Source: a virus. From it: 64,000 bases of DNA. Made by a program: the position numbers and the translations under genes. The first letter of the stretch is position 1. Every line of letters starts with the position of its first letter. Shown one piece after another: positions 4,924 to 60,395 of this stretch. Below the pieces are notes generated by a model. That model was not told where the DNA came from. It saw only the letters and a list, made by a program, of their open reading frames with translations, and searched no databases. The stretch is from IMG/VR virus record IMGVR_UViG_3300037246_001677, positions 56,171 through 120,170 of that record; one strand, given 5' to 3'.

Positions 4924-5999
4924 AATTTACTGAGTATATAGATGAGTCCTCAAAGCGTGAATTGAAATTATATGGTATGATTCAATCTTTATACAAAAAT
5001 TGCGCTCCATTTATAAAAGAGTTAAGAAAGTCAGGTGAAAATAAAGTACTGTGGAGAGGAACCAATAAAATCAGCACAACAACAATAAAACAAGTAACTC
5101 CAAGACAAGACCGTGCTCCAAAAGATATGCCAGTAGAAATACACGACGAACTTGATGTAAGATTCAAAAAGAAATTTGGATGGATGGCGAGAAGTGAAGG
5201 TGTGTTTATTACATCACAAAGAGCATCAGCGGAAACTTATGGTGATGGTTATATATTTTTTCCAGTAGGAAAATATGAGTACTTATATAATCCATTTATT
5301 AGTGATTTATATTCAGAAGTGGATTCTGATTTAGATATATATAATGCATTTGTTGAAGGAGAAAATGCTGAATGGGAAATGGAATGGGAAAATGAGTATG
5401 GAGAAAATGAGTATGGAACATGGTATTATTTAGGAACAGACACAGGAGAGTCTGACACAGAAGAAGCAACAATAGCAGCAGCAGAGGCAGAAGGAATTGA
5501 ATATGATGAACATGATCTTGAAAACATAGAAAATGATTTAGAGTGGACTCCTGAAGTGTCATTACAAGATTATTTGGATGAAAAAAAAGAAGGAGCAAAA
5601 GAAGAAGGAGTATATAATTTAGAACAAGTTTTGAAAGGTTATAGGTCCACTAATTTAGGATTGGCTATAAAAAGGAAAGTGGAAATTATGTTCAAATGTA
5701 AAAGTTATTATTTAATCGAAGGTCATTTCAAAAAGGATATTATAAAATATGTGTTGGAAGGTAAACCAATGAAGTTTAATCCTAAGCAAAAAGAACTTCC
5801 ATTTGTCAGGGATCCAAATTGGAGAAAAAAACCAGGGGTAAAACCAGCATTCATTGATCCATACAGCTTAGAAGACTGGAAAGTATCCGGACTTGGTATG
5901 AAAGCAGCCCATCAAAAGTTTGGTAAGTTAATGTCAAAAGCTAAAAAGGGACACCAGAAACCAGTAATTAAAAATAAACTTAAGAAATTAATTAAGTAA
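4920..5999 (+). CDS. Putative ADP-ribosyltransferase-fold protein with acidic insert
   Basis: LWRG, GVFITS, A..YG, VEIMF spaced like the R-S-E ART signature; N-term MKFTEYIDE. Confidence 0.45.
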   Translation: MKFTEYIDESSKRELKLYGMIQSLYKNCAPFIKELRKSGENKVLWRGTNKISTTTIKQVTPRQDRAPKDMPVEIHDELDVRFKKKFGWMARSEGVFITSQRASAETYGDGYIFFPVGKYEYLYNPFISDLYSEVDSDLDIYNAFVEGENAEWEMEWENEYGENEYGTWYYLGTDTGESDTEEATIAAAEAEGIEYDEHDLENIENDLEWTPEVSLQDYLDEKKEGAKEEGVYNLEQVLKGYRSTNLGLAIKRKVEIMFKCKSYYLIEGHFKKDIIKYVLEGKPMKFNPKQKELPFVRDPNWRKKPGVKPAFIDPYSLEDWKVSGLGMKAAHQKFGKLMSKAKKGHQKPVIKNKLKKLIK

Positions 6000-7440
6000 T
6001 CTCTATCTTATCAATATCAATGGTATCACCCTCTTCAAATAAGTACTCTGATATATGAAATTTTTCGGAGTCGTAGTATCTATACCTTACATCACCATGC
6101 TTTTCAAAGAAAGTAGTGTGGTCATGTAAGTCAAAGATGTACGCTCCGTTTTCTTTGTCCGCGTGGCTCCTCAAAGCCCTACCTATTGACTGCAGTACTC
6201 TAATTTTAGATTTAAATGGCGAGGCCAAAATAATATACTTCAAGTTTGGAATATTGATCCCCTGTTGAAAAATACCATAAGTAGCTATAAGTGCTACATC
6301 CTTACGGTCTTTCATTTTATTTCTCCACTCTTCTCTTAACTCAACAGAATCCCTACCTGACAAGAACACTACTTCTTTATTAGTGATTAAATTATCTTTT
6401 AGATAATCACCTTCTTTCTCCACTTTACCAACCAACAATAATGTATTGTGGTCAAAACGATCAACCAACCTATTAATGATAGATAATCTAAACTCGTTTG
6501 TAAAAACTTCATCTTTAACTTCATCATAAGTACCTTCATGTCGATCTCCTTTATATTCTAAATTTAACACATTAACATTACACTTACTGATAAATCCTTT
6601 ATCAGCTAATAACCCCGATGGATACTCTTTTAGAATTGGGCCAAGATATGATTTAGTGTTCCAATTATCAAGTACTCCGGAGTGCATGGTTCCTGTAAAT
6701 CCTAATCTATATCTTGCTCTAACTGACTTCACTAAAATCTTTTTTAATTCAAAGGCTTTTGATTGGTGTACTTCATCTACAATCACACAATTATAATTCA
6801 TCAACTTATCATGGTTATTCTTAAGCGTCTGCCAAGTTGATATAGTTATTGGATAATCCCATTGCTTTGACTTACCATGTACTCTACCTATAAAATCCTC
6901 TGGTATGCCATACTCTATCATATCACCATAAAATTGCTCAACCAAACTAATTGTAGGCACAATAATTATAGCGTTTTCAACACCAGATTTTTTCCTTTCC
7001 AATAGAGTTTTAACTACATATGATATGACTAATGACTTACCGCTGGCAGTGGCTGACCTAATTATTCCTTTGGTATATTTAAGACAGGCACGTATACTTT
7101 CTTTCTGATAATTGCGTGGGTATAGTGATAGGTTATATCTGGGTATGAATTTTGGTCCTTTAAATAATGACTTCACTTCAGTATCAACAGTTAACTTATG
7201 CCTTGGAAAGTGCATCTTATGTATTTTAATTAACTCAAATAATAAACCATAAGGTAACGTATCAAACCTATGCATCATACAGGTTTTACCATTCCAACCA
7301 CCACTTCTATACTGAGGCATATACTGAAATCCCTCTACGTATTCAGTAAAGTGTTCTTTCATACCATCAAGATAATCAACATCTTCTGTGTTTATTTTTA
7401 TCAGCATTGGATTCTGCTGGCTAATATTTACTAATTCCAT
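5992..7440 (-). CDS. uvsW: UvsW-like SF2 DNA helicase
   Basis: PRNYQ, SATASGKS, IIVPT, VDEVH, GFTGT, QGINIPNL, LQSIGRALR; start probably ATG 7440 or 7449 rather than 7578. Confidence 0.9.
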   Translation of the reverse strand: MELVNISQQNPMLIKINTEDVDYLDGMKEHFTEYVEGFQYMPQYRSGGWNGKTCMMHRFDTLPYGLLFELIKIHKMHFPRHKLTVDTEVKSLFKGPKFIPRYNLSLYPRNYQKESIRACLKYTKGIIRSATASGKSLVISYVVKTLLERKKSGVENAIIIVPTISLVEQFYGDMIEYGIPEDFIGRVHGKSKQWDYPITISTWQTLKNNHDKLMNYNCVIVDEVHQSKAFELKKILVKSVRARYRLGFTGTMHSGVLDNWNTKSYLGPILKEYPSGLLADKGFISKCNVNVLNLEYKGDRHEGTYDEVKDEVFTNEFRLSIINRLVDRFDHNTLLLVGKVEKEGDYLKDNLITNKEVVFLSGRDSVELREEWRNKMKDRKDVALIATYGIFQQGINIPNLKYIILASPFKSKIRVLQSIGRALRSHADKENGAYIFDLHDHTTFFEKHGDVRYRYYDSEKFHISEYLFEEGDTIDIDKIEIT

Positions 7441-7651
7441 TTCTTTCATTTTTATCATATACTTTCTGAGCTTGACCACGTAATAACATACTGATTTTAT
7501 ACCAAACAATTGTATCTTCACATCCACATGGACATAAGTCCGGTGACCAACTACCACCACCTTTAAAATGTCTTTCATGAGTTAAACAATTTTCACAAAA
7601 TATATCTCTCCCCTTTCCCGTCCATCCTTTTTCTATTGGTAATTTTGTCAT
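7421..7651 (-). CDS. Small Cys-rich hypothetical protein
   Basis: CENC...CPCGC; coupled to neighbours. Confidence 0.55.
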   Translation of the reverse strand: MTKLPIEKGWTGKGRDIFCENCLTHERHFKGGGSWSPDLCPCGCEDTIVWYKISMLLRGQAQKVYDKNERNGISKY

Positions 7652-7890
7652 TATACTAAAATATCTTCATCCTTTAAAAATTCTTTTTTTTCTGGGTATT
7701 CATGTACTCCAAGTGGTATATAAGGTGTATAATAAAAACACTCTTCCCAATTAACATACCATCTACCTTTTAATTTACGCTCACGCTCAACTAATCTTGT
7801 CTTTACTATTTTAAATGAAATTTCAGATAATCCATTTGCCATTGGTTGGACACCACATATTTCCTCAGCTATTAAATTTGGCAATCTCAT
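7651..7890 (-). CDS. Small protein composed of gp23 major-capsid-like motifs
   Basis: PNLIAEEICGVQPM, RKLKGRW, YYTPYIPL resemble three motifs of the capsid protein at 52209. Confidence 0.6.
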   Translation of the reverse strand: MRLPNLIAEEICGVQPMANGLSEISFKIVKTRLVERERKLKGRWYVNWEECFYYTPYIPLGVHEYPEKKEFLKDEDILV

Positions 7891-8181
7891 ATCCCTATCC
7901 TCACAATTATATCAATTACTTTATCACTAATTTCTGTTTGTTCAAGATTACAAAGATAATGACCAAACACATGTTTAGCATGGTACTCATATGAAGTATC
8001 TAATTTACCTTTCACAAATAATCTAATTACTTGTGGACTAGTAAAATCACATAGCTCGTCATGATACGTTCCAAAAAATAATGGTACTGGTAAGTCATAT
8101 TTTATACATAATGATTCTATCATTTTAAACACGTTTTGAAATCTATCACCTTCTAACCATTTACTCATATCCCTATCCTCA
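7886..8181. repeat. 18-bp exact direct repeat CTCATATCCCTATCCTCA at 7886-7903 and 8164-8181
   Basis: Read directly; flanks ORF 7887..8168; both upstream proteins end RIGI*. Confidence 0.9.
7887..8168 (-). CDS. Hypothetical protein with HxxGH metal-binding-like motif
   Basis: Start reassigned to ATG 8168 (ATGA overlap with uvsY stop); AKHVFGHYL. Confidence 0.55.
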   Translation of the reverse strand: MSKWLEGDRFQNVFKMIESLCIKYDLPVPLFFGTYHDELCDFTSPQVIRLFVKGKLDTSYEYHAKHVFGHYLCNLEQTEISDKVIDIIVRIGI

Positions 8182-8593
8182 TTGCATCTATAAATGACTT
8201 CATTCTCCACCCTACCTGTTCAAAGGCTTTAAATGCAATCTCAAAAAATCTCACTCTTGCTTTTTGCCTTGCCATAATTCTTTTCATCTGAATTATTTTA
8301 TCATCGGATGGTATACAGTACTTCTCTATTTCAGGTTTAGACCACTCTTTGTCGTCGTCAAATCTATAAAATTTATACCGAATACCAACTAACTTTTCAT
8401 ATTTCATTTCCAGTTCTTCCATCACTGCAAGTTCTTTATAATATAACTCTTTGTATTTAACAATCATAAATGGATTTTCTTCCAGCTTTTCTGTTAAATT
8501 CAAATCTGTAAATCTGACCATATCATGAATTGGGTGGTCCTCAAGTAGGTCTTTTACAATATTTTCTTCCTTCGTCATACTAAATTCCTCCAT
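8165..8593 (-). CDS. uvsY: UvsY-like recombination mediator
   Basis: ~140 aa helical protein next to uvsW; C-term FEQVGWRMKSFID resembles UvsY C-terminal motif. Confidence 0.7.
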   Translation of the reverse strand: MEEFSMTKEENIVKDLLEDHPIHDMVRFTDLNLTEKLEENPFMIVKYKELYYKELAVMEELEMKYEKLVGIRYKFYRFDDDKEWSKPEIEKYCIPSDDKIIQMKRIMARQKARVRFFEIAFKAFEQVGWRMKSFIDAMRIGI

Positions 8594-8598
8594 GAGTA

Positions 8599-8627
8599 AT
8601 TATATCGGATTAAATATAATATGTAAA
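8599..8627 (-). promoter_or_regulatory. Sigma70-type promoter TTTACA-17-TATAAT driving uvsY/uvsW
   Basis: Reverse complement reads ATTTACA tattatatttaatccga TATAAT. Confidence 0.7.
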
Positions 8628-14434: not shown

Positions 14435-15031
14435 ATGAATAACGTTTTAGATTTAGTAAAGGCCGGAGAGTATATTAAGGCAATAAAATTACATAGAGAA
14501 CAAACAGGATTAGGTCTCAAAGAATCAAAAAAACATATTGATGAACTAAGAATGCAGCAAAGTCTTAGCTACAATGATATTGATAAAATGAAAGACCACA
14601 TACAAGGAATGTACTTTATTGATGAAAAACAAAGGAACTTTATACTTGACTTAGTTGAAGAAGCGTATTACCTTGGTGAGGATAATGGTGACACAACAGG
14701 ATACAATAGATCACTAAACGAAAATGAAGGAACGGCGGATTATGATGAAGATGATGTGTATGAGCGAGCATATGATGAAGGCTGGCAAGAAGGTCGATCA
14801 GAAGGACACGAAGATGGACAGAGAGAAGGATACGAACAAGGCATGGAAGAAAAATCAGAACAATCATATAACGATGGAGTTGAAGATGGTAAAAATGAAG
14901 GATATGAAGATGGTAAAAATGAAGGATATGAAGAAGGATATGATATAGGTAAGTTAGAAGGATATGAAGGAGGACATCAAACGGGACTCGAACAAGGCAG
15001 AGCAGAAGAAAGATTTGAAAGGAGTGGATGA
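14435..15031 (+). CDS. Ribosomal L7/L12 CTD-like N-terminal domain plus acidic GYxEG-repeat protein
   Basis: IKAIKLHREQTGLGLKESKKHID; many GYEEG/GYEDG units; 24-bp tandem DNA repeat near 14881-14930. Confidence 0.6.
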   Translation: MNNVLDLVKAGEYIKAIKLHREQTGLGLKESKKHIDELRMQQSLSYNDIDKMKDHIQGMYFIDEKQRNFILDLVEEAYYLGEDNGDTTGYNRSLNENEGTADYDEDDVYERAYDEGWQEGRSEGHEDGQREGYEQGMEEKSEQSYNDGVEDGKNEGYEDGKNEGYEEGYDIGKLEGYEGGHQTGLEQGRAEERFERSG

Positions 15032-48822: not shown

Positions 48823-50400
48823 ATGGCAAAATGGTATAACCCAACAACATGGGGACAAGAACCAGAAAGAATGGATGAAGCTATAAGAGCTTTTGAGGAA
48901 AGACCAAAACCAAAATTAAAAGATACTCTTGCAACAAGAGGTGAAGGTTGGGAAAATGTACTTGATATGCCTGGCATTGGTCGAGTAGGACTGCAGTCAT
49001 TCAATATGTTTTATAATACTCTCATTAACAAACAATTTGAAAATGAGGTAGAAAGAATTTGGGAGTATAGAAGTATGGCATCCCAAACAGAAATAGCAGA
49101 TGTTGTTGAAGATGCAGTAAATGAGGCAACACAGGAAGATGATGATGGAAAAGTTTTCCATCTTGAAATCATTGATAAAGAATTAGAAAAAAATGAAAAC
49201 ATAGTTAAAAATTTAAGACAAGAATTTTATAAGCTTTTCATCGAACGTCTAAGTATGGATGATTTTGTATGGGGAATGTTCCATAACTATATGGTAGATG
49301 GTAGAGTTTTCTATGAAAGAATTATTGACTCAAGACATCCAAAAAATGGAATAATCCACGTTAAAAGATTACCATCCGAAACAATGGATTACATTTATGA
49401 TCCATTAAGTTCGGAAATTATATTGTATATGCAATATCTAAAACCAAAACCAAAAAAACCTGCTACAGTTGAAGAGGCCAGAAAAAGACATGGTGATGAC
49501 TTAATTATATTTGAACCCGACCAAATAGGATTTGTGGATTATGGTATTTATGGATCAAGTAGATACAATATTTTTGGTTACCTTGAAAAAGCAAGAGTTC
49601 CATTTAACCAATTAAAATTATTAGAAACATCAGTAATAATATATAGAATAGTAAGATCACCCGAGCGATTCGTTTTTAGAATTGACACAGGGAACATGCC
49701 AAGAGATAAGGCTCTAAAGTATGTAGAGAAAATCAAACAGAAGATGAGTAAGAAACAAACTTACGATCCTCGATCTGGCACACTTACTAATGAACCAGAA
49801 ATTATGAGCATTCTTGAAAACTTCTACTTACCACAATCTGCTGAAGGTAGAGGTAGTCAAATTGAATCCATTGGAGGATTCTCACCGGGCTTTACCGAGC
49901 TTGATGATATTTACTACTTCGCAAGAAAGCTCTACCGATCTTTGAAATATCCAGCCTCACGTGTCCAAGCAGCACAAGAAAGTAGAACAGGAGATGTTCT
50001 ATTTGGTCAAGGTGACACTGGTACTATTTCAAGAGATGAAATAAAATGGAGTAAATTCCTTGAAAGACAACAAAGGAAATTTTGTAAGGATTTTACTGAT
50101 ATGTTTTTAATTCACTTAGAATTTAAAGGTCTTAAAAAACTATATAGTTTAGATGAAGAAAAAATAAAAGTAGTTATGAATCCACCGTCCAGATACAAAG
50201 AACAAATGGATCAAAGCTTCTTAGATTCTCGTTTCAACAACTACTCTCAATTAGCAGATAGAGAAGAAATGAGTAAGTCATACTTAATGAGAAAGTACTT
50301 GAAGTGGGATGACGATGAAATCAAAGCCAATGTTGATGGAATGAAAAAAGACAAACTGCTAGGATTCAGGTCAGATGAAGAAGGCGGCGGTGGATGGTAA
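48823..50400 (+). CDS. gp20: Portal protein
   Basis: YRSMA, VDGR, NQLKLLE, IYRIVRSPERFVFRIDTGNMP, ISRDEIKW. Confidence 0.95.
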   Translation: MAKWYNPTTWGQEPERMDEAIRAFEERPKPKLKDTLATRGEGWENVLDMPGIGRVGLQSFNMFYNTLINKQFENEVERIWEYRSMASQTEIADVVEDAVNEATQEDDDGKVFHLEIIDKELEKNENIVKNLRQEFYKLFIERLSMDDFVWGMFHNYMVDGRVFYERIIDSRHPKNGIIHVKRLPSETMDYIYDPLSSEIILYMQYLKPKPKKPATVEEARKRHGDDLIIFEPDQIGFVDYGIYGSSRYNIFGYLEKARVPFNQLKLLETSVIIYRIVRSPERFVFRIDTGNMPRDKALKYVEKIKQKMSKKQTYDPRSGTLTNEPEIMSILENFYLPQSAEGRGSQIESIGGFSPGFTELDDIYYFARKLYRSLKYPASRVQAAQESRTGDVLFGQGDTGTISRDEIKWSKFLERQQRKFCKDFTDMFLIHLEFKGLKKLYSLDEEKIKVVMNPPSRYKEQMDQSFLDSRFNNYSQLADREEMSKSYLMRKYLKWDDDEIKANVDGMKKDKLLGFRSDEEGGGGW

Positions 50401-50646: not shown

Positions 50647-51249
50647 ATGATAACCAAAGCACATCTTATTACAGAAGTTAGCCATGATTTTGAAATTTCA
50701 GAATCAAGTTCAGGTGATACACACATTGTTGGTATCTTTAGCTCTGCAGAATTAGAAAACAATAACAAGAGAAGATATAAGAAATCAATACTTGAAAGAG
50801 AGTTAAAGAAAGTTCAAGAAAAGGTTTCTGGTAAATCTCTTTGGGGTGAATTAGGTCACCCACCGAATCCGGAAGTAAACCCAGATAAAATTGCTATCTT
50901 AACTACACAGTTAGAGTGGAAAGGTAATGACGTATATGGTAGAGCAAAAGTACTTGATACACCTATGGGTAATATAGCAAAAACTCTTATTAAAGAGGGT
51001 AAGATGGGTATTAGTTCGAGAGGTTTAGGAACTGTTGGAGACGATGGGTATGTAAACGAAGATTTTAACTTAATTACCTGGGACCTTGTTACTGATCCAT
51101 CAAATAGCCCATCATGGGTTAATGGTGTATATGAAGGAAGAACTTGGGAAGTAGAATCACCAGATAAGGAACCAACAATACAAGAAGCACAGGAACACCA
51201 CAAGAAACAAATTTGGCAAGTAATTAAAAATATTGAAAGTAATATTTAA
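50647..51249 (+). CDS. gp21: Prohead maturation protease
   Basis: NNNKRRY, GELGHP, LDTPMG, GISSRGLG, WDLVTDPS. Confidence 0.93.
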   Translation: MITKAHLITEVSHDFEISESSSGDTHIVGIFSSAELENNNKRRYKKSILERELKKVQEKVSGKSLWGELGHPPNPEVNPDKIAILTTQLEWKGNDVYGRAKVLDTPMGNIAKTLIKEGKMGISSRGLGTVGDDGYVNEDFNLITWDLVTDPSNSPSWVNGVYEGRTWEVESPDKEPTIQEAQEHHKKQIWQVIKNIESNI

Positions 51250-51342: not shown

Positions 51343-52176
51343 ATGGACAAACTTCTTGAAATACTTGGCGCTAATAAGTTAAACGAAGACGATCAGAGTC
51401 AAGTAAAAGAAAGACTTGAAACACTAATTGAAGTGAAAGGTCAAGAACTGTCACAGAGCAAACTTCAGGAAGCGAAGGAACAGCTAGTAGAGTCCTACGA
51501 AACTAAATTTGAAGAATATAAAGAAGATATTACTTCCAAGTTTTCAAACTTCGTTGACTCAGTTTTGGAAGAAGAAATGACAATTCCAGATAAAGTTCTT
51601 GAATTTGCAAAGAAGGGTGAGTTATATCATGACTTGATTGAACAATTCAAAATCAGATTAAGCGTTGATGAAGGATTGCTTGATGAAGAAGTGAAAAACT
51701 TACTCAAAGAAGCTAAAGGAGAAATCCTTAAACTTCGATCAGACCTTGATGAAAACATTGCTAAAAATCTTGAAGTCATCAGTGACGCACAAGAATTGGC
51801 ATCTGAGCTTTATCTCAGAAGAAAATGCGATGGTCTAACTGAAAGCCAAAAGAAAAGAGTTCTTGAAATGCTTTCTGGCATTAAAGACAGGGCTGAAATA
51901 GATCGCAAATTTGACATCGTTCTCGAAGCTTACGACGACAAAGAAGAAAAAGATGACGAGGAAGAAGAGGACGACGAGAAAAAGGAAAAGAAAAAGAAAG
52001 ACAAAGAAGAAGAAGAGGAAGACGAAGACGAGAAAAAGAAGAAAGACGAGGAAGAAGAAGAGGAAGACAAGAAAAAGAAGGAAGACAAAAAAGCCAATGA
52101 AGGCTTAAATGAGGACAGTCCCTTCAAACAACACCTTAAAGAGTATCAAAAGATACTAAGAGAAGGTAGATTTTAA
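51343..52176 (+). CDS. gp22: Prohead scaffold/core protein
   Basis: Coiled-coil, GLTESQK, E/D/K low-complexity tail, directly upstream of capsid. Confidence 0.8.
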   Translation: MDKLLEILGANKLNEDDQSQVKERLETLIEVKGQELSQSKLQEAKEQLVESYETKFEEYKEDITSKFSNFVDSVLEEEMTIPDKVLEFAKKGELYHDLIEQFKIRLSVDEGLLDEEVKNLLKEAKGEILKLRSDLDENIAKNLEVISDAQELASELYLRRKCDGLTESQKKRVLEMLSGIKDRAEIDRKFDIVLEAYDDKEEKDDEEEEDDEKKEKKKKDKEEEEEDEDEKKKKDEEEEEEDKKKKEDKKANEGLNEDSPFKQHLKEYQKILREGRF

Positions 52177-53550: not shown

Positions 53551-53976
53551 ATGGAATTAAACAGAAATAATTTATCCGATGCCTTTGATATGGATGGCAT
53601 AGAAAGTGAAGTGGATCGTCTTACCCTTGTTTCAGACACTGACCCGGAAGAAGTACTTAAAGAAAATATAGACAGAGCGAATAGAATATTAGATAGGGTA
53701 GAACAAGAATTAGAAAGTGGAAATTTTACAGCAAGAATGGTAGAGGTTGCTGGAGCCATTTTAAATACCGTAACGAACTCGAGTAAGGAAATAATGGCTA
53801 ACATTAACTATAAAAAATATTTACAAATTCGCGATTCTATGGTAAAATATAAGTATGATGAATTGGAATCCAAAAAAGCAAAATTCCGTTCTCCAACGAG
53901 TCAAAATATTATCGTCTCAAATAGAGAAGATATAATGAAACTACTAAACGGAGAATTAAAACAAATTGAAAAATAA
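53551..53976 (+). CDS. Probable terminase small subunit (gp16-like)
   Basis: ARMVEVAG and NIIVSNREDIMKLL resemble T4-like TerS; start ATG 53551 after AGGAGG. Confidence 0.6.
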   Translation: MELNRNNLSDAFDMDGIESEVDRLTLVSDTDPEEVLKENIDRANRILDRVEQELESGNFTARMVEVAGAILNTVTNSSKEIMANINYKKYLQIRDSMVKYKYDELESKKAKFRSPTSQNIIVSNREDIMKLLNGELKQIEK

Positions 53977-54001
53977 AAAACTAAAAGAAAGGAAAACTGT
54001 T

Positions 54002-55966
54002 ATGTTTGATAAGAACAACGATTTTATGGAGGTCATCCTTGGTCAGCAAAAAGGAACTGGTATCAAAAAGTGGGAGGGAACGACCATTGATTATTTGGCT
54101 GAAGTAGAAAAAAGACCAGAAATTTGCAATTTTGCCCCTGGTCGAATCTATAATATGATTATGAAGGTGGGCACAGAGCAAGTATCAGACGAGTTAAAAA
54201 CTAAAGGTTATGAGGATTTAGTTAAATATAATTTCTTCAAGAAAAAAATCTTCGGTACTCTTGAGCCGATTCATGATATGATGAAATTTATGAAAGCCGC
54301 TGCAAGGAGAACAGAAACTGGTAAACGAATCTTTATCATGGTTGGTCCTGTTTCTTCGGGTAAATCAACTATCGCTGCCTTAATCAAAAGAGGACTTGAA
54401 AAGGACTGTACTCCAAAATATGCAATCTCAGGATGTCCAATCCACGAGGAACCTCTTCACTTGATTCCAGAAGATGATCGACCATACTGGGAGGATCGAC
54501 TTGGTATAAAAATCGAGGGCCATCTTTGTCCGGTTTGTACTCAAATGTTGGATGAAAAATACACAAACAAAGATGGAGTAATTCAATGGCATGAGGTACC
54601 AACCGAAACAATTAGAATCAGTGAACAACGAAGGATTTGTATCGGTACATTCCAACCTAGTGATCCAAAATCACAGGACATTACTGAACTTATTGGTCGA
54701 GTTGATATGACTAAGATGGCTAGATATGGTGAAACCGATCCAAAAGCTTATAAGTTCGATGGTGAGCTTCAAGTTGCAAATGGTGGTATGATTGAATACA
54801 TCGAAATTCTAAAAGCAGATATTAAATTTCACTATATTCTTATCACCGCCGCTCAAGAGCAAGTTATCAAGGCCCCTGGTTTCCCACAAATGTACATTGA
54901 TACATTGATTATGAGTCATACAAACCAAACAGAATTTGACTCATTCAAATCAGACAAAAAGAACGAAGCTCTACATGATAGGATGTATAAAGTAGAGGTA
55001 CCATGGAATCTAAGAGTAGATGATGAAATAAAGATTTATGAAAAAATGATTGATGAATCTGACTTTAGAAATATCCATATCGCCCCTGGAACATTGAGAG
55101 TTGCCGCAGAGTTTGCAGTACTTTCAAGATTGAGAAAGTCAACCAGAGTTAGCAATAAAATCACCAAGATGAAACTCTACAACGGTGAAATTCCAGTCGA
55201 GTTCAAAAAGACCGACATTGATATTAAGAAATTAAGAGAAGAAGGAAGAGAACTAGGTGAAGGTATGAGTGGTATCTCTCCAAGATTTGTTGTTAATGCT
55301 CTTAACTTAGCACTTGGTGCAAAAGAAGAAAGGAAGTGTATAAATCCGATTGACATGATTAGATCACTTAGAGATAACTTTAACCATCACATTGGTATTC
55401 CAGATGAAGATAAAGAAATCTTTATGAGTATATTAACTGGTAACAAAGAGTCGGTAGCATCCGAGTATAAAGATTGGGCAAAGAAAGAAGTCAACATGGC
55501 TTTCTTATGGGCATATGATGAACAAGCCCAGGAACTATTTTACAGGTATATGATAAATGCCGAAGGTTATTGTAAAAATGAACAAATCATTGATTCAGTA
55601 ACTGGTGAATATCATAACCCAGATGAAAAAGTCATGAGGTCCATCGAAGAACTAATCGGAGTACCAATGGAATCAAGAAAAGAATTTAGAAATGGTATTT
55701 TCGTTTATAAATCAGACTTCTTAGGTAGAGGCAAAGACTTTACTTTCAAGGACTACGATCCGTTGAGAGAAGGTATTGAGAAAAAGTTGATGGGTGATTT
55801 GAAAAATGTTGTATCACTTTCAATTGCTGACTCATCTGCCACAAATCCGAAGTCCAAAAAGAGAAGAGAGGTGGCCCTGGAAACCTTGAAAGAAAAAGGA
55901 TATTGTGATAAATGTGGTTCAATGCTTCTTAGCTTTATAGGTGAGGTATTACGTAAGGAAGATTAA
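54002..55966 (+). CDS. prkA: PrkA/YeaG-family AAA+ serine kinase
   Basis: MVGPVSSGKST, CPIHEEPL, FQPSDPKSQD, ANGGMIEYIEILK, NEALHDR, EGMSGISPRF. Confidence 0.93.
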   Translation: MFDKNNDFMEVILGQQKGTGIKKWEGTTIDYLAEVEKRPEICNFAPGRIYNMIMKVGTEQVSDELKTKGYEDLVKYNFFKKKIFGTLEPIHDMMKFMKAAARRTETGKRIFIMVGPVSSGKSTIAALIKRGLEKDCTPKYAISGCPIHEEPLHLIPEDDRPYWEDRLGIKIEGHLCPVCTQMLDEKYTNKDGVIQWHEVPTETIRISEQRRICIGTFQPSDPKSQDITELIGRVDMTKMARYGETDPKAYKFDGELQVANGGMIEYIEILKADIKFHYILITAAQEQVIKAPGFPQMYIDTLIMSHTNQTEFDSFKSDKKNEALHDRMYKVEVPWNLRVDDEIKIYEKMIDESDFRNIHIAPGTLRVAAEFAVLSRLRKSTRVSNKITKMKLYNGEIPVEFKKTDIDIKKLREEGRELGEGMSGISPRFVVNALNLALGAKEERKCINPIDMIRSLRDNFNHHIGIPDEDKEIFMSILTGNKESVASEYKDWAKKEVNMAFLWAYDEQAQELFYRYMINAEGYCKNEQIIDSVTGEYHNPDEKVMRSIEELIGVPMESRKEFRNGIFVYKSDFLGRGKDFTFKDYDPLREGIEKKLMGDLKNVVSLSIADSSATNPKSKKRREVALETLKEKGYCDKCGSMLLSFIGEVLRKED

Positions 55967-56076
55967 AAATAGCAGATTGGAACTTTAGTAGACTGCCGTT
56001 AGCGGGCCGGTGCTCATTGAGATAGGAAGGTTAAAATAAATAGCAGACTGACAAATATCCGTTGAGCTATGGAGGT

Positions 56077-56108
56077 GAAAACTCCGGAGGTTTTCCTCCG
56101 GAGTTTTC
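56077..56108 (+). terminator. Perfect 14-bp hairpin/terminator after prkA
   Basis: GAAAACTCCGGAGG-TTTT-CCTCCGGAGTTTTC. Confidence 0.8.
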
Positions 56109-56121
56109 TTATCTGAAGTAA

Positions 56122-56150
56122 TTTACATTCTCACTGAGTTATGATATAAT
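56122..56150 (+). promoter_or_regulatory. Sigma70-type promoter TTTACA-17-TATAAT with extended -10 TG
   Basis: TTTACA 56122-27, TGATATAAT ending 56150. Confidence 0.75.
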
Positions 56151-56156
56151 AAGATT

Positions 56157-56333
56157 ATGAATAAGAAAATAATAAATTTTATTTTCACTTTGTTATTAAT
56201 AAGAATGTTCGTTATAAGCGCATTTAATATTTGGCTTGTGTTTTTGCTTATAGTTTTTTGTGGAGACTGGTTAGCTATATTATGGTTAACTGATAAAAAT
56301 AATGATGAAAGGAAACAAAATGAATCTTTATAA
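56157..56333 (+). CDS. 58-aa hydrophobic membrane protein (not in ORF track)
   Basis: MNKKIINFIFTLLLIRMFVISAFNIWLVFLLIVFCG; possibly leaderless. Confidence 0.45.
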   Translation: MNKKIINFIFTLLLIRMFVISAFNIWLVFLLIVFCGDWLAILWLTDKNNDERKQNESL

Positions 56334-56499
56334 GAAGAACATGGGATTTTTTATTAATGCTGCCTTTTGGACAATAGCACTTTTTACTGATCCAATTTGG
56401 ATATTAATTAAAGAGTTAGGACCAATAGCTCTTGCTTTACCAGTTATGTTTGGTTGGTTACTGGCTAACTTTGAAAAAGATATTGACTGGGAGTTATAA
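56302..56499 (+). CDS. Small two-TM membrane protein
   Basis: Hydrophobic segments; start may be 56320. Confidence 0.55.
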   Translation: MMKGNKMNLYKKNMGFFINAAFWTIALFTDPIWILIKELGPIALALPVMFGWLLANFEKDIDWEL

Positions 56500-56720
56500 T
56501 GATAAGAACAATAATAAGAGAAATTGTTTATGCCGGAACTACTATAGCAATATCATTATTTAATGCTCTAGTAGAAACCTATGTAGCAATAAGAAGTATA
56601 ATGACTTGCATATGGTGGATGATGAATTTTTGCACTGTTGAGTATACAGTTGAGGATGACGATGGAACAATAATACACCGATTTCCCCAATTAAATAATG
56701 GAGACAATGATGGATTCTGA
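56499..56720 (+). CDS. Small hydrophobic hypothetical protein
   Basis: TAATG-coupled. Confidence 0.5.
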   Translation: MIRTIIREIVYAGTTIAISLFNALVETYVAIRSIMTCIWWMMNFCTVEYTVEDDDGTIIHRFPQLNNGDNDGF

Positions 56721-56895
56721 AAGAAAATTTGAATTGATAAAAGAACTAATAAAGGACCATAAGGTTAGTAAAATAAATAGCTTTGCCGCTATGATAGCTT
56801 TGGAATTAATAGTTGATCCTAAAAAACCAAGCAAAGAATGCAAAGAGTGGGCCAAGGATTGCTTAAAAATAGGAAGGTATTATAATGAAAATTGA
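56698..56895 (+). CDS. Small hypothetical protein
   Basis: Overlapping chain of small ORFs. Confidence 0.5.
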   Translation: METMMDSERKFELIKELIKDHKVSKINSFAAMIALELIVDPKKPSKECKEWAKDCLKIGRYYNEN

Positions 56896-57070
56896 AGTGA
56901 CACTAACTGTAGTAGAAAACGAATCCATTGAATATACTATCACCACAGGTGGAGAAACCTGGGAAGATATTCACACAATAATAAATAATGCAGAAAAAAT
57001 TAATTTACGAAAAGAAAAACCAAAGAAAAAAGGAAAGAGATTACCTGGATTTATACAGGAAAAGGAGTAA
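56885..57070 (+). CDS. Small hypothetical protein
   Basis: AGGAAGG SD. Confidence 0.5.
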   Translation: MKIEVTLTVVENESIEYTITTGGETWEDIHTIINNAEKINLRKEKPKKKGKRLPGFIQEKE

Positions 57071-57075
57071 ATGAA

Positions 57076-57258
57076 ATGCCTTACATAACGAAGGAAGATT
57101 TCAAATTTTTGCTCAGCTTGGCTCCTGATTGGGTTAATGATCCCAATAACGGACACGATCCAACTATGTACGGAACTGGAACCTATGAAGGGGATATCAA
57201 AGTCCACAATCGGATGGTAGAAATCAAGAATCAAATCCTTGGAAAGGAAAAAATATGA
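57076..57258 (+). CDS. Small hypothetical protein
   Basis: DPTMYGTG; ATGA overlap with yeaH. Confidence 0.55.
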   Translation: MPYITKEDFKFLLSLAPDWVNDPNNGHDPTMYGTGTYEGDIKVHNRMVEIKNQILGKEKI

Positions 57259-58610
57259 ACATACTTACTGGACTAGGCTTAGTAGCCACCACTATTTTAC
57301 ATGACGACTGGGATTTAAGTGAGAAAGGTAAAAAGGATGCCGAACGACATCAAGAAAAAATTGATGATGCTATTCGGAAAAATGTCCGTGATGTTATAGG
57401 TGAAGAGTCAATCATTACTAAAAAGGGGAAACGAAAAGTTCGAGTACCTGTAAGAGGAATGAAAGATTATAGATTTGTTCACGGTGATAATAAAGGACCA
57501 ACTGCTGGTGTTGGACAAGGTGATGGAAAAGCTGGTGATATTATCGACCAGAGACCGAATCAAGATGGACAACCTGGTGAACACAAACCTGGTGAACAAC
57601 GAGGTGAAGATTATATGGAAGCAGAAGTTGATATTGACTATCTGCTCAAAATAATGTTTGAGGACCTTGGTCTTCCTTGGATTGAAGAAAAAACTACTGC
57701 CAAAAAACTTGTTCCAAAGGGTTGGAAATTCGAAACAATTTCTAAAAAGGGCATCATGCCAAGGGTTCATAAAAAAAGAACAATGATGGAGGCAGTTAAA
57801 AGAAATATCATGTTATCCGCCGCTATCATGGAAGAAACTGGAGTTGATGAACCAACATCCTATAAAGCATTAAACCAAGCATATGGCGATATAAATTATG
57901 CTATAGAACTCATTGAAAAGAATGAAGTCAATTCAGATCAAGATGCGATTGTTATCAATGAGGATGACTTAAGATTCAAACAAATTGAAGAGGACACAGA
58001 ATACCATTCAAATGCTGTAGTTATAGCAATGATGGATGTATCTTATTCAATGGGTCCAGAAAAGAAGTACTTATGTAGAAGCCTTCTTTTCTGGTTGACT
58101 GAGTTTTTAAAGAAAAGATATGACCATGTTGATATTAGATTCATTCAACATACGACAGAAGCACAAATTGTTGATGAAGATACATTCTTTCACACTCACA
58201 CAACTGGTGGTACCATGTGTTTTACTGCTTTTGAAAAAGCTAACTACATGATTGACACAGAATATCCGTTGAATGAGTGGAATGTTTACTGTATCTATGT
58301 TGGTGATGGTGAAGATTTTGATACCAAGAAAACAGTTCAACAAATTGATTTAATGATTCAGAAGAAAATCAACATGTTAGGTTATGTTGAAATTGATCTT
58401 GACCACGACGAAGATGGTTTTGGTTTTAGAAATGCAATGAGAACTCTTCTGGTACAAATTAAAAAGAAATGGAATTTTTCCCATAACCGCGAAAGAGAAA
58501 CTGATTTTTATAAAAATGAAAAGAGTAGATTTCTGTGTGCAGTTATTAGGAATAAAACTCATGTATGGCCAACCCTTAAACACTTTTTATTTGAAAAGGA
58601 GAAAAAATAA
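57255..58610 (+). CDS. yeaH: YeaH/YhbH (DUF444) vWA-domain protein
   Basis: HDDWDL..KG, GVGQGDG, FEDLGLP, EDDLRF, MMDVSYSMG (MIDAS), TGGT, GDGED. Confidence 0.92.
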   Translation: MNILTGLGLVATTILHDDWDLSEKGKKDAERHQEKIDDAIRKNVRDVIGEESIITKKGKRKVRVPVRGMKDYRFVHGDNKGPTAGVGQGDGKAGDIIDQRPNQDGQPGEHKPGEQRGEDYMEAEVDIDYLLKIMFEDLGLPWIEEKTTAKKLVPKGWKFETISKKGIMPRVHKKRTMMEAVKRNIMLSAAIMEETGVDEPTSYKALNQAYGDINYAIELIEKNEVNSDQDAIVINEDDLRFKQIEEDTEYHSNAVVIAMMDVSYSMGPEKKYLCRSLLFWLTEFLKKRYDHVDIRFIQHTTEAQIVDEDTFFHTHTTGGTMCFTAFEKANYMIDTEYPLNEWNVYCIYVGDGEDFDTKKTVQQIDLMIQKKINMLGYVEIDLDHDEDGFGFRNAMRTLLVQIKKKWNFSHNRERETDFYKNEKSRFLCAVIRNKTHVWPTLKHFLFEKEKK

Positions 58611-58828
58611 TGGAAATGTTAAACGAAAGACAATTAGAAAACGGTGACTATGTTTATGACTGTACTTTTGAAGATGGTGAGTTCAAAACTCTATTAGGGT
58701 ATACCATTGAAAAGTACTTGAAAAATGAAGCCGATGAACTGACAGAAGAAATGAATAAGCTGATGAGTTTTGCTGTGACTGGTATCCTAAGAGAACAAAT
58801 GGAAAGGGAACACGATGGAAAAAAGTGA
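58610..58828 (+). CDS. Small hypothetical protein
   Basis: Between yeaH and spoVR, coupled. Confidence 0.55.
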   Translation: MEMLNERQLENGDYVYDCTFEDGEFKTLLGYTIEKYLKNEADELTEEMNKLMSFAVTGILREQMEREHDGKK

Positions 58829-60395
58829 ACTAAAACAACTAATAAAAATAGAGGATAGAATATATCAAATTGCAGAAGAAGAAGGACTTGAGTTCTGCGA
58901 TATTGAATTTGATATTATCCCACCACAGAAAATGCTAGAGATTATGGCTTACCGAATCCCCGGTAATATTTCAAACTGGAAGTATGGACGTGACTATGAA
59001 AGACTCAGAACAATTCATGAAAAGGTTCACGCGGGACTTCCATATGAAGTAGTCATAAACTCAGACCCATCAAGAGCATACTTGATGAAAGAGAACACTT
59101 TTGCTGTTCAAGCATTAGTCATGGCTCATGTTGTTGGTCACGTTGCTTTTTTCACAATGAATAAGTACTTCGCAGATACAAATAAAGATATTATTCCATT
59201 TATGAGTGAAGCTACAAAAAGATTCAATAAGTATGAAAGAATGTATGGCATAGATCAAGTTGAAAAAATAATTGATGCCGCACATTCAATTCAGTTTCAC
59301 TCTAGTCCATTTGATAATGAAACTGAAACTGAAAAAAGAGAAAGGATTTTTAAACAAAGAAAACAACAAGCTCATACAAAAAGAACAGCGGAATTTGATG
59401 ATATTGTTCCTATTGATGAAGCCTATAAAGACATGGATATTGCTCAATTCAATCAAAGACTTTGGAGATCATTAAAACTTAAAACACCTGTTGAACCAAC
59501 AGAGGACTTGTTAAGATATGTTATTGATAATTCAACAACACTTGAAAATTGGCAGAAAGATATTCTTGAAGTACTTAGAAGAGAAGGTAGATACTTCTGG
59601 CCTCAAATGAGAACCAGATATATGAATGAAGGATTTGCAACTTATTGGCATGAAAAAATAATGGGTAGATTATTTAAAGAAGAAGCGCTAAACATAAAAG
59701 ACCATGCTCAATATAACTTTTCTAACTCACTTGTAAAAGCCTCCCATAGAACAGCTTTAAATCCATATCTTATTGGTTCTAAAATGTGGGAAGATATTGT
59801 AATGAGATATGATAAAGGTAGATACGGTAGAGATTGGGATAATTGTGAACTCAGAAAGGAAAGAGATAATTGGGACACTAAAGAAATGCGTGGCAAAGAA
59901 AAAATGTTTGAGATCGTCAGAACCCATACTGACTGGTTCTTTATGAAAGGATATTTAACCCCAGATTTGGTAGATGATTTAGAACTCTACATTTTTGTTG
60001 AAAGAGTAAACCCAGTGACAAAGGACTTAGTCATTACAAAACAAAGAGCTGAAAAGATTGCTGAAATGATTGTACTAAACTTCACTCACAGTGGTGTTCC
60101 AAAAATTGACATCGTTGATGGCAATTGGAAGCAGATGGGACATTTATATCTTGCGCATAGATGGTCCGGAGCTAATCTTAAAAGAGATTACTGTAAAAAG
60201 ACCTTACAACATATTGCAAATATTTGGGGTAAGAATGTCTATCTCGAAACAAAAGATGGTCCTAAGAAAAAACTAATATATAAAGTAGAAAGAAAAGCCA
60301 AACTTGGTGGACCAAAGACACCTTCCGGTTCTCCAAGTATTAGCAGTAGTAGCATAAATCCGGATGTTTGGTCAACAATGATCGTTTCTGAATAA
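58815..60395 (+). CDS. spoVR: SpoVR/YcgB family protein
   Basis: PYEVVINSDP, MAHVVGHVAFF, WQKDIL, YFWPQ, MNEGFATYWH, NPYLIG. Confidence 0.93.
   Translation: MEKSELKQLIKIEDRIYQIAEEEGLEFCDIEFDIIPPQKMLEIMAYRIPGNISNWKYGRDYERLRTIHEKVHAGLPYEVVINSDPSRAYLMKENTFAVQALVMAHVVGHVAFFTMNKYFADTNKDIIPFMSEATKRFNKYERMYGIDQVEKIIDAAHSIQFHSSPFDNETETEKRERIFKQRKQQAHTKRTAEFDDIVPIDEAYKDMDIAQFNQRLWRSLKLKTPVEPTEDLLRYVIDNSTTLENWQKDILEVLRREGRYFWPQMRTRYMNEGFATYWHEKIMGRLFKEEALNIKDHAQYNFSNSLVKASHRTALNPYLIGSKMWEDIVMRYDKGRYGRDWDNCELRKERDNWDTKEMRGKEKMFEIVRTHTDWFFMKGYLTPDLVDDLELYIFVERVNPVTKDLVITKQRAEKIAEMIVLNFTHSGVPKIDIVDGNWKQMGHLYLAHRWSGANLKRDYCKKTLQHIANIWGKNVYLETKDGPKKKLIYKVERKAKLGGPKTPSGSPSISSSSINPDVWSTMIVSE

Follow-up and report, generated by a model that had tools for sequence, protein, structure and literature searches.

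A small protein of a T4-like phage that resembles three conserved segments of the major capsid protein and probably mimics unassembled capsid protein

In the available text of PMC3014915, Gol is a 29-residue region of the T4 major capsid protein (MCP) gp23 that defines Gol function; the isolated peptide binds domains II-III of EF-Tu, with a preference for the GDP form, and this binding leads to cleavage of EF-Tu by the Lit protease. In the same text, Kleanthous and colleagues noted that no region of gp23 is more conserved than Gol and suggested that the gp23 of all T4-like phages binds host EF-Tu (PMC3014915). As given in the accessible part of Fang 2022 (PMC9546572), the T4 gp23 N-terminus through L106 lacks order in the unexpanded head, faces its interior and is probably in contact with the scaffolding core; later this part becomes the N-arm and N-fist. 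The same segment is the site of the length mutations A94V and G97S, and its residue Met98 belongs to a portal-whisker cluster (PMC9546572). Capsid proteins are also major triggers of bacterial immunity, and the portions available of three sources name Lit, CapRel, Avs7/8/10, Dsr1 and Thoeris (PMC9712102, PMC11312562, 10.64898/2026.01.04.697583). According to the available part of the last of these, a 2026 preprint, Avs7/8/10 and Dsr1 sense MCPs and Avs7 recruits EF-Tu, whereas Lit and CapRel read short motifs (10.64898/2026.01.04.697583). Full-text literature searches, supplements aside, found neither Gol-like or capsid-excerpt small proteins nor capsid-peptide decoys, and no capsid-peptide decoy is listed in the accessible portion of an editorial on phage countermeasures (PMC13728456).

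Some proteins of mobile elements exploit or imitate the interfaces of structural proteins, or block the sensing of such proteins. The satellite proteins CpmB and Ccm of SaPIs and Sid of P4 redirect capsids and are folded; together with T4 capsid-targeting sequences and encapsulin cargo peptides, they are precedents for a partner in head assembly. DSAD1, in the part of the source at hand, is a sensor-blocking protein (PMC11087589). Unlike these folded satellite proteins and non-mimic inhibitors, the protein that we describe here, termed the mini protein, is encoded by a lytic phage, is predicted to be disordered and consists of capsid-family peptides. Microproteins, that is, dominant-negative excerpts of larger proteins, are a eukaryotic concept. 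Like them, the mini protein is small, derives from the interaction surface of a larger protein and plausibly competes for partners, but its family concatenates and shuffles several non-contiguous segments; no description of the microprotein concept for a phage capsid protein was found in the literature searched.

With Gol itself the correspondence is direct, as the first segment of the mini protein (module 1) matches T4 gp23 at 104-117 in 12/14 residues, within the most conserved part of gp23. T4 Gol lies inside a late capsid protein, whereas the motif of the mini protein stands in a free-standing gene of a predicted early operon and is joined to two more capsid-derived pieces and a novel tail. 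In addition, with Gol taken to span gp23 residues 93-122, this copy has no counterpart of the N-terminal third of a region of that size, and EF-Tu binding and Lit activation are properties reported for T4 Gol.

The mini gene was found in a window of 64,000 nucleotides (positions 56171-120170 of a 120-kb IMG/VR record; 34.6% G+C) from a T4-like phage. Replication and recombination genes of the window encode UvsY, UvsW, a DnaB-like gp41 helicase, a UDG-family protein and a family-B DNA polymerase, and the head module at 48.8-53.4 kb comprises genes for Portal_T4, prohead protease S77, a T4-type scaffold and a 407-aa Gp23-family MCP, with the large terminase further on. Within the head module, the portal gene spans 48823-50400, the protease gene 50647-51249 and the scaffold gene 51343-52176. 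The closest cultured MCPs were only ~32-34% identical to that of the window and came from Pelagibacter phage HTVC008M, Methylophilales phage Melnitz, cyanophages and others. The sequencing runs with matching DNA were DNA runs only, labelled marine sediment or cold seep. Between the MCP gene and the large terminase, at 53966-60395, we observed a trio of PrkA kinase, DUF444 and SpoVR genes (E 2e-110, 2e-87 and 9e-100), which looks like a host-type stress-response module within the structural region; a 198-aa ORF at 14435-15031, directly after the DNA polymerase gene, is extremely acidic and rich in repeats (E/G/Y/D runs). The features of the operon, together with the MCP gene, are as follows.

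8599-8627, minus strand: best sigma-70-like promoter match of the region (TTTACA-17-TATAAT, 11/12), just upstream of uvsY; a consensus match only
8165-8593, minus strand: uvsY, first gene of the operon (Pfam UvsY, PF11056, E 1.6e-8; PHROG 231)
7887-8168, minus strand: 93-aa ORF upstream of the mini gene, inserted between it and uvsY; no Pfam or PHROG family
7898-7902, minus strand: GAGGA ribosome-binding site of the mini gene, 7 nt before the ATG, read from the sequence
7651-7890, minus strand: mini gene, encoding the 79-aa capsid-excerpt protein; ATG start, stop codon at 7651-7653, homologues found
7421-7651, minus strand: 76-aa Cys-rich ORF (CxxC...CxC) downstream of the mini gene; no Pfam or PHROG family
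5992-7443, minus strand: uvsW helicase, last gene of the unit (Pfam UvsW_N, ResIII and Helicase_C), its start placed by comparison with the relative L016
52209-53432, plus strand: gp23-type MCP (Pfam Gp23, E 6.6e-93), with module-like segments at residues 80-94, 165-188 and 352-363

The operon thus runs in the order uvsY, 93-aa ORF, mini gene, 76-aa ORF and uvsW. A sequence-only reading of this DNA had reported the 79-aa ORF and placed it in the uvsY-uvsW unit and not in the head module; both the ORF, with strand, length and sequence as quoted there, and its location were reproduced here, as UvsY is encoded upstream, UvsW downstream and the head genes far away. The ATG of the mini gene overlaps the stop of the 93-aa ORF (ATGA; tcat on the plus strand at 7887-7890), and its TAA overlaps the ATG of the 76-aa ORF (TAATG, 7649-7653). 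The octamer TATAAATA was absent from 7.4-8.7 kb and was not enriched in the window (12 found versus 11.6 expected). The ribosome-binding site, the coupled start and stop, the operon behind a sigma-70-like promoter and the lack of TATAAATA at 7.4-8.7 kb all indicate that the mini ORF is a real gene, and its operon with an early-type promoter, away from the head module, predicts early expression. T4 likewise has small genes, uvsY.-1 and uvsY.-2, at the same map position between uvsY and uvsW, but their products are unrelated to the mini protein in sequence (best BLASTP E 0.15 for one, no alignment for the other). In one contig of run X3, 7441 is joined to 7905 through 13 other letters, omitting the 76-aa ORF and the mini gene; this is a weak hint of a relative without the two-gene cassette, as the side measures 37 letters at a likeness threshold of 80.

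The sequence-only reading had regarded the protein as stitched from three separated capsid motifs in the order of gp23. Compared by BLASTP with the window MCP, the mini protein gave the colinear HSPs 3-17/80-94 (E 8e-4) and 21-44/165-188 (E 6e-4), and the third of the previously listed matches (FYYTPYIPL vs VIYLPYIQL) was not among the HSPs. A chained local alignment to the same MCP, with gap extension free in the MCP so that segments could be skipped, recovered all three stretches in order with a score of 106, compared with 48.1 +/- 7.7 for shuffled sequences, of which 0/1000 reached that score. A profile of T4-like MCPs built from 18 sequences (16 database representatives, T4 gp23 and the window MCP) also gave three colinear matches, of mini residues 4-20 to profile positions 77-93 (21 bits), 20-47 to 216-243 (5.4-8.3 bits) and 52-65 to 401-414 (3.7-7.2 bits). 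Modules 2 and 3 are weak in absolute score (4-8 bits), and residues 18-47 alone and 45-79 alone each outscored 500/500 shuffles. These results indicated that each of the three parts resembles the MCP significantly, and that the three motifs and their order, as first read, withstand shuffled controls both in the chained alignment and, part by part, against the profile. The intervening MCP stretches are indeed skipped; their sizes, however, are ~70 and ~165 aa and not the ~100-170 aa given before. The segments of the mini protein were delimited as follows.

7831-7884, minus strand: module 1, residues 3-20, a gp23 N-arm/Gol-type motif (Pfam Gp23 over residues 4-20, E 0.003; PHROG 12830; profile 21 bits)
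7750-7833, minus strand: module 2, residues 20-47, a basic segment matching the MCP E-loop return strand (BLASTP E 6e-4; profile 5.4-8.3 bits, 0/500 shuffles)
7696-7737, minus strand: module 3, residues 52-65, matching the first strand of the MCP P-domain hairpin and the start of the P-loop (hmm 401-414, 0/500 shuffles)
7654-7695, minus strand: acidic-hydrophobic C-terminal tail, residues 66-79, family-specific and nearly invariant in the alignments

In an AF2 model of the window MCP (pLDDT 69.5, pTM 0.63), which contains the expected HK97-type elements, the counterpart of module 1 immediately precedes the first E-loop strand, that of module 2 is the long strand E168-187, which returns and runs into the spine helix, and that of module 3 is the first strand of the long hairpin, E356-368. 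From general HK97 topology, we take the three segments to form the periphery of the MCP P-domain. In T4 gp23 numbering, modules 1, 2 and 3 lie at ~104-117, 256-270 and 447-456. They coincide with the three most conserved 14-residue windows of the 18-MCP alignment, a set that is biased, as its members were picked for resembling the mini profile. Another 21 MCPs, less than 80% identical and found solely through a DNA pattern of module 1, formed a second set, in which the modules fell in the 1st, 3rd, 4th and 6th most conserved 12-residue windows, and the 2nd (spine helix) and 5th had no counterpart in the mini protein. The most conserved 29-residue window of gp23 in the 18-MCP alignment was T4 97-125, and across the two alignments the most conserved stretch was T4 97-125/104-117.

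The modules are therefore homologous to three conserved segments of the MCPs of the Gp23 family (PF07068, PHROG 138 and 12830), and yet the mini protein is not a member of this family, since it fails the defining features. With Pfam PF07068, it scored 17.4 bits (E 0.003; residues 4-20 on profile positions 17-33/376), below the gathering cut-off of 24.4 bits, and the Pfam Gp23 and PHROG 'major head protein' families detected module 1 only; none of the PHROG families extended to any other part. The HK97-type fold with spine helix and P and A domains was not attained by the 79 residues in AF2. In comparison with Gp23 MCPs, the mini protein lacks the spine helix, the A domain and a confident fold, and therefore could not build a shell. 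Its AF2 model, made with a nine-member alignment, had a mean pLDDT of 45.5 and one low-confidence helix at residues 22-42; an ESM Atlas model was similarly poor (0.45), and the Atlas contained no match to the mini protein at >=0.9. These models suggest that the protein is probably disordered alone and folds only on a partner, if at all.

We then compared the module-1 14-mer with the resident capsid and with other gp23 sequences. The motif is identical to T4 gp23 104-117 at 12/14 positions and to the MCP of its own phage at only 7/14; against 121 own-clade MCPs, the mean was 8.0/14 and the maximum 11. All of 120 own-clade MCPs (61-94% identical to the window MCP) have His and Val where the mini protein has Glu and Cys. 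Thus, the mini gene was not copied recently from the resident capsid gene, nor does it track the MCP. The motif was nearer to other gp23 clades than to its own, in a comparison set biased by having been picked through mini-profile similarity. The much closer match to T4 gp23 than to its own MCP or clade argues that the partner is probably conserved beyond the phage clade. A scenario in which the resident MCP had lately diverged to escape was rejected, as its motif is typical of the clade and is found identically in 25/120 relatives.

A word-indexed search of 5.8 billion proteins returned two homologues, 48% and 44% identical, with a longer capsid-like N-terminus, no module 2 and a C-terminal half almost invariant with that of the mini protein. 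A profile search of 1.84 billion representatives gave 63 matches at E <= 1e-3, 44 of them of <=200 aa; among the 19 longer ones, 16 were MCPs of 376-532 aa, matched at the N-arm. After the VQPM motif the true MCPs run into the first E-loop strand, whereas many of the small proteins diverge at once, and those that continue in an MCP-like manner may be gene fragments. When 49 small sequences were scanned with the MCP profile, module 1 was detected in all but one, module 3 in 10 and module 2 in 4, and the acidic-hydrophobic tail pattern occurred in 13; by alignment, module 2 was also visible in P0009 and P0188, both of which share the full three-module layout. A further profile search of the 5.8 billion proteins, with nine tail-type members, yielded 11 clusters at E <= 1e-6, none of them named, including P0188, which is 67% identical to the mini protein. 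Homologues at 31-67% identity retain the reading frame, the tail and many invariant residues, and module 2 has 10 invariant positions across five family members, with a basic signature. We defined the family by module 1 plus the acidic-hydrophobic C-terminal tail in a protein of less than ~170 aa, and the mini protein falls within it (alignments A1, A2 and A6). The homologue search, proposed along with the sequence-only reading, therefore revealed a conserved family and not a decayed fragment.

The modules are arranged variously. P0006 carries module 1 in tandem, followed by modules 3 and 2 and the tail, and P0020 has two copies of module 1. Members of a second subfamily (P0013, P0027, P0037 and P0060; alignment A3) join module 1 to a C-terminal Trp-rich domain of ~70 aa, for which PHROG has no family. 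The assembly from three motifs proposed at the outset therefore applies to the mini protein itself and is just one of several architectures in the family. In these sequences, module 1 behaves as a putative portable binding peptide, universal, duplicable and fused to varied C-terminal domains.

Several loci deserve separate mention. A gene of the Trp-rich subfamily (L020:5400-5708) lies on a phage contig with a UvsW-like helicase. At L002:1254-2140, two adjacent ORFs of 148 and 147 aa share a domain of ~70 aa, to which each adds a piece derived from the capsid. In the first, module 2 is N-terminal and the C-terminus resembles the spine helix (profile 246-285, 32 bits); in the second, the shared domain is followed by module 1 and the first E-loop strand, reversing the order of the MCP. 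At L117:6001-6348, a copy of a P0064-type gene forms a 115-aa ORF in which the tail is replaced by unrelated residues; its flanks align poorly to L110 without gaps, and it could be a frameshift or an assembly error.

Outside these collections, relatives were scarce. Searching 50,697 cultured phage records by tblastn with three family members gave no small-protein homologue; matches with >=80% query cover were confined to two Sa157lw records (E = 1), taken as chance, and all other matches were MCP genes hit through module 1. A pattern scan of viral contigs with alignment A1 found nothing, and two pattern-limited scans (A4 and A1) of 185,579 bacterial and archaeal genomes found no relative. A metagenome scan gave 12 loci that matched residues 3-32 only; by ORF scan, L002 and L010 carried small module-1 ORFs, L005 and L008 short MCP fragments, and the other 8 lay in ORFs of >=230 aa, which were taken as MCP genes. 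Within the scope of these searches, the family appears to be rare in metagenomes and phage-only, with its modules shuffled and sometimes in tandem.

We also addressed the gene neighbourhood of the family. L016 is a close relative of the window (gp41 89%, uvsW 88% and uvsY 77% identical), in which the homologue P0022 directly follows uvsY and is itself followed by an unrelated 122-aa ORF and then uvsW. The 93-aa ORF of the window has no counterpart there, and the 76-aa ORF is replaced by the 122-aa one. As the flanking ORFs differ between the two, the uvsY-uvsW gap appears to be a hot spot for small accessory genes. In the distant relatives L097/L098 and L110-L116 (polymerase ~53% and gp41 62-65% identical), the family gene is located between the UDG-family gene and the DNA polymerase gene; in L097/L098, its start and the stop of the gene upstream overlap, and uvsY lies next to uvsW. 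L110-L116 were 99.98-100% identical over the compared flanks and therefore represent one phage. Thus, in all contexts recovered (the window, L016, L097/L098 and L110-L116), the tail-type gene occupies the replication/recombination block, within which its position differs, suggesting that it moves inside this block and stays there. The records of L110, L097, L098, L116 and L020 contained no MCP gene. Most relatives retain an N-terminal extension with the N-half of the motif (~T4 94-102), which the window mini protein lacks.

Taken together, the results suggest that the capsid-excerpt protein probably mimics unassembled capsid protein. The earlier proposal of a capsid mimic stood in that the similarity to the MCP is real, the family is conserved, the protein is predicted to be disordered and the gene belongs to a recombination operon. 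For the roles suggested with it, a decoy of capsid-sensing immunity or a dominant-negative block on competing phages, the evidence points in both directions. We proposed that the mini protein would be made before the capsid protein and would occupy, as a competitive mimic, a partner to which nascent or unassembled gp23 otherwise binds through the corresponding exposed segment. This partner would preferably be on the host side, either EF-Tu itself or a sensor that recognises the gp23 motif in combination with EF-Tu, and capsid-triggered abortive infection would be blunted or pre-empted, or translation retuned, as a result. The host side was preferred because EF-Tu is the sole reported partner of the isolated peptide, itself the one version of this segment for which binding on its own has been described, the motif is of pan-gp23-consensus type and the locus is accessory and early; the early operon and the Gol/EF-Tu literature, as far as the available text goes (PMC3014915), favour it. 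Competitive mimicry with a host-side partner is nevertheless a tentative reading, plausible at somewhat less than even confidence, and the identity of the partner is its weakest step. Made early, a Gol-like peptide should set off a Lit-type system rather than inhibit it; a small accessory protein could not titrate a factor as abundant as EF-Tu; and most relatives retain an N-terminal half of the motif that is missing from the window copy. The low scores of modules 2 and 3 also weigh against mimicry. A decoy for the phage's own capsid should copy its own MCP, and the Glu and Cys of the mini protein against the invariant His and Val of its clade speak otherwise; that the motif is nearer to the pan-gp23 consensus than to the resident MCP is awkward for such a decoy and mildly favours a role against rivals. 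When a complex of the mini protein and E. coli EF-Tu was predicted from alignment A2, the score was 0.00 and the mark 0.32, which speaks neither way.

A partner in head assembly is only slightly less likely. Here the mini protein would bind the scaffolding core, the portal, the prohead protease or the edge of the MCP P-domain through surfaces used by gp23, and would thereby poison co-infecting T4-like rivals while its own diverged MCP is spared, delay the assembly of its own heads or enter the prohead as cargo. The location of all modules at the periphery of the HK97 fold in the window-MCP model fits such a role, as do the scaffold and portal contacts and the length mutations of the T4 gp23 N-terminal segment, within the accessible part of PMC9546572. 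The fusion of module 1 to varied C-terminal domains is likewise reminiscent of a targeting tag with cargo, and the departure of the motif from positions invariant in its own clade, towards other gp23 clades, would suit a weapon against rivals; the set that represents those other clades is, however, biased by its selection through the mini profile. Moreover, the head genes are far away, the operon of the mini gene has an early-type promoter, and the copy in the window lacks the N-half that is equivalent to the scaffold-facing part.

It is unlikely that the mini protein is an accessory factor of replication or recombination, in which the basic segment and the acidic tail would act on DNA, UvsY, UvsW, UDG or the polymerase and the likeness to the MCP would be historical. 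In its favour, the tail-type gene adjoins uvsY/uvsW or UDG/polymerase genes in every context recovered, and module 2 has an invariant basic signature of its own (10 positions in 5 sequences). Single-strand-binding proteins have acidic interaction tails with a hydrophobic end, which the tail of the mini protein resembles. Yet module 2 is missing from most family members and the capsid motif is universal, no protein of the 120-kb record has a similar tail, the C-terminus of the polymerase differs, and a neighbourhood of small phage genes is weak evidence. Two specific forms were discarded: a sliding-clamp-binding tail, as the window polymerase ends differently, and a mimic of the single-strand-binding-protein tail, for want of a similar tail elsewhere in the 120-kb record. 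Finally, a functionless, decaying remnant of a duplicated capsid gene, or a chance resemblance, might account for a short product with no family annotation, a low-confidence fold and only 11 close clusters, but is highly improbable and already largely refuted, since shuffle controls rule out chance, homologues at 31-67% identity keep the frame, tail and invariant residues, the position is kept in a relative with 77-89% identical neighbours, the translation signals are coupled, and the motif was not recently copied from the resident MCP.

Molecular mimicry by small derived proteins is a known kind of strategy; what is new here is the capsid-excerpt small proteins themselves. We suggest, with considerable reserve, that they represent 'capsid microproteins' of T4-like phages, early and disordered strings of conserved MCP peptides including the Gol motif that would blind capsid sensors or sabotage the heads of rivals. 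If this is true, a lytic phage would for the first time be seen to turn excerpts of its own structural protein into a weapon, and the long-unexplained interaction of Gol with EF-Tu would gain a physiological context. Centred on the Gol motif, the peptides of the family form a short set that lends itself to testing, and its modular small proteins are natural reagents with which the capsid segments read by host or phage partners can be mapped. Any partner would be informative, pointing to a new anti-sensor strategy, to a new form of interference between phages, or to a link between a translation factor and head assembly.
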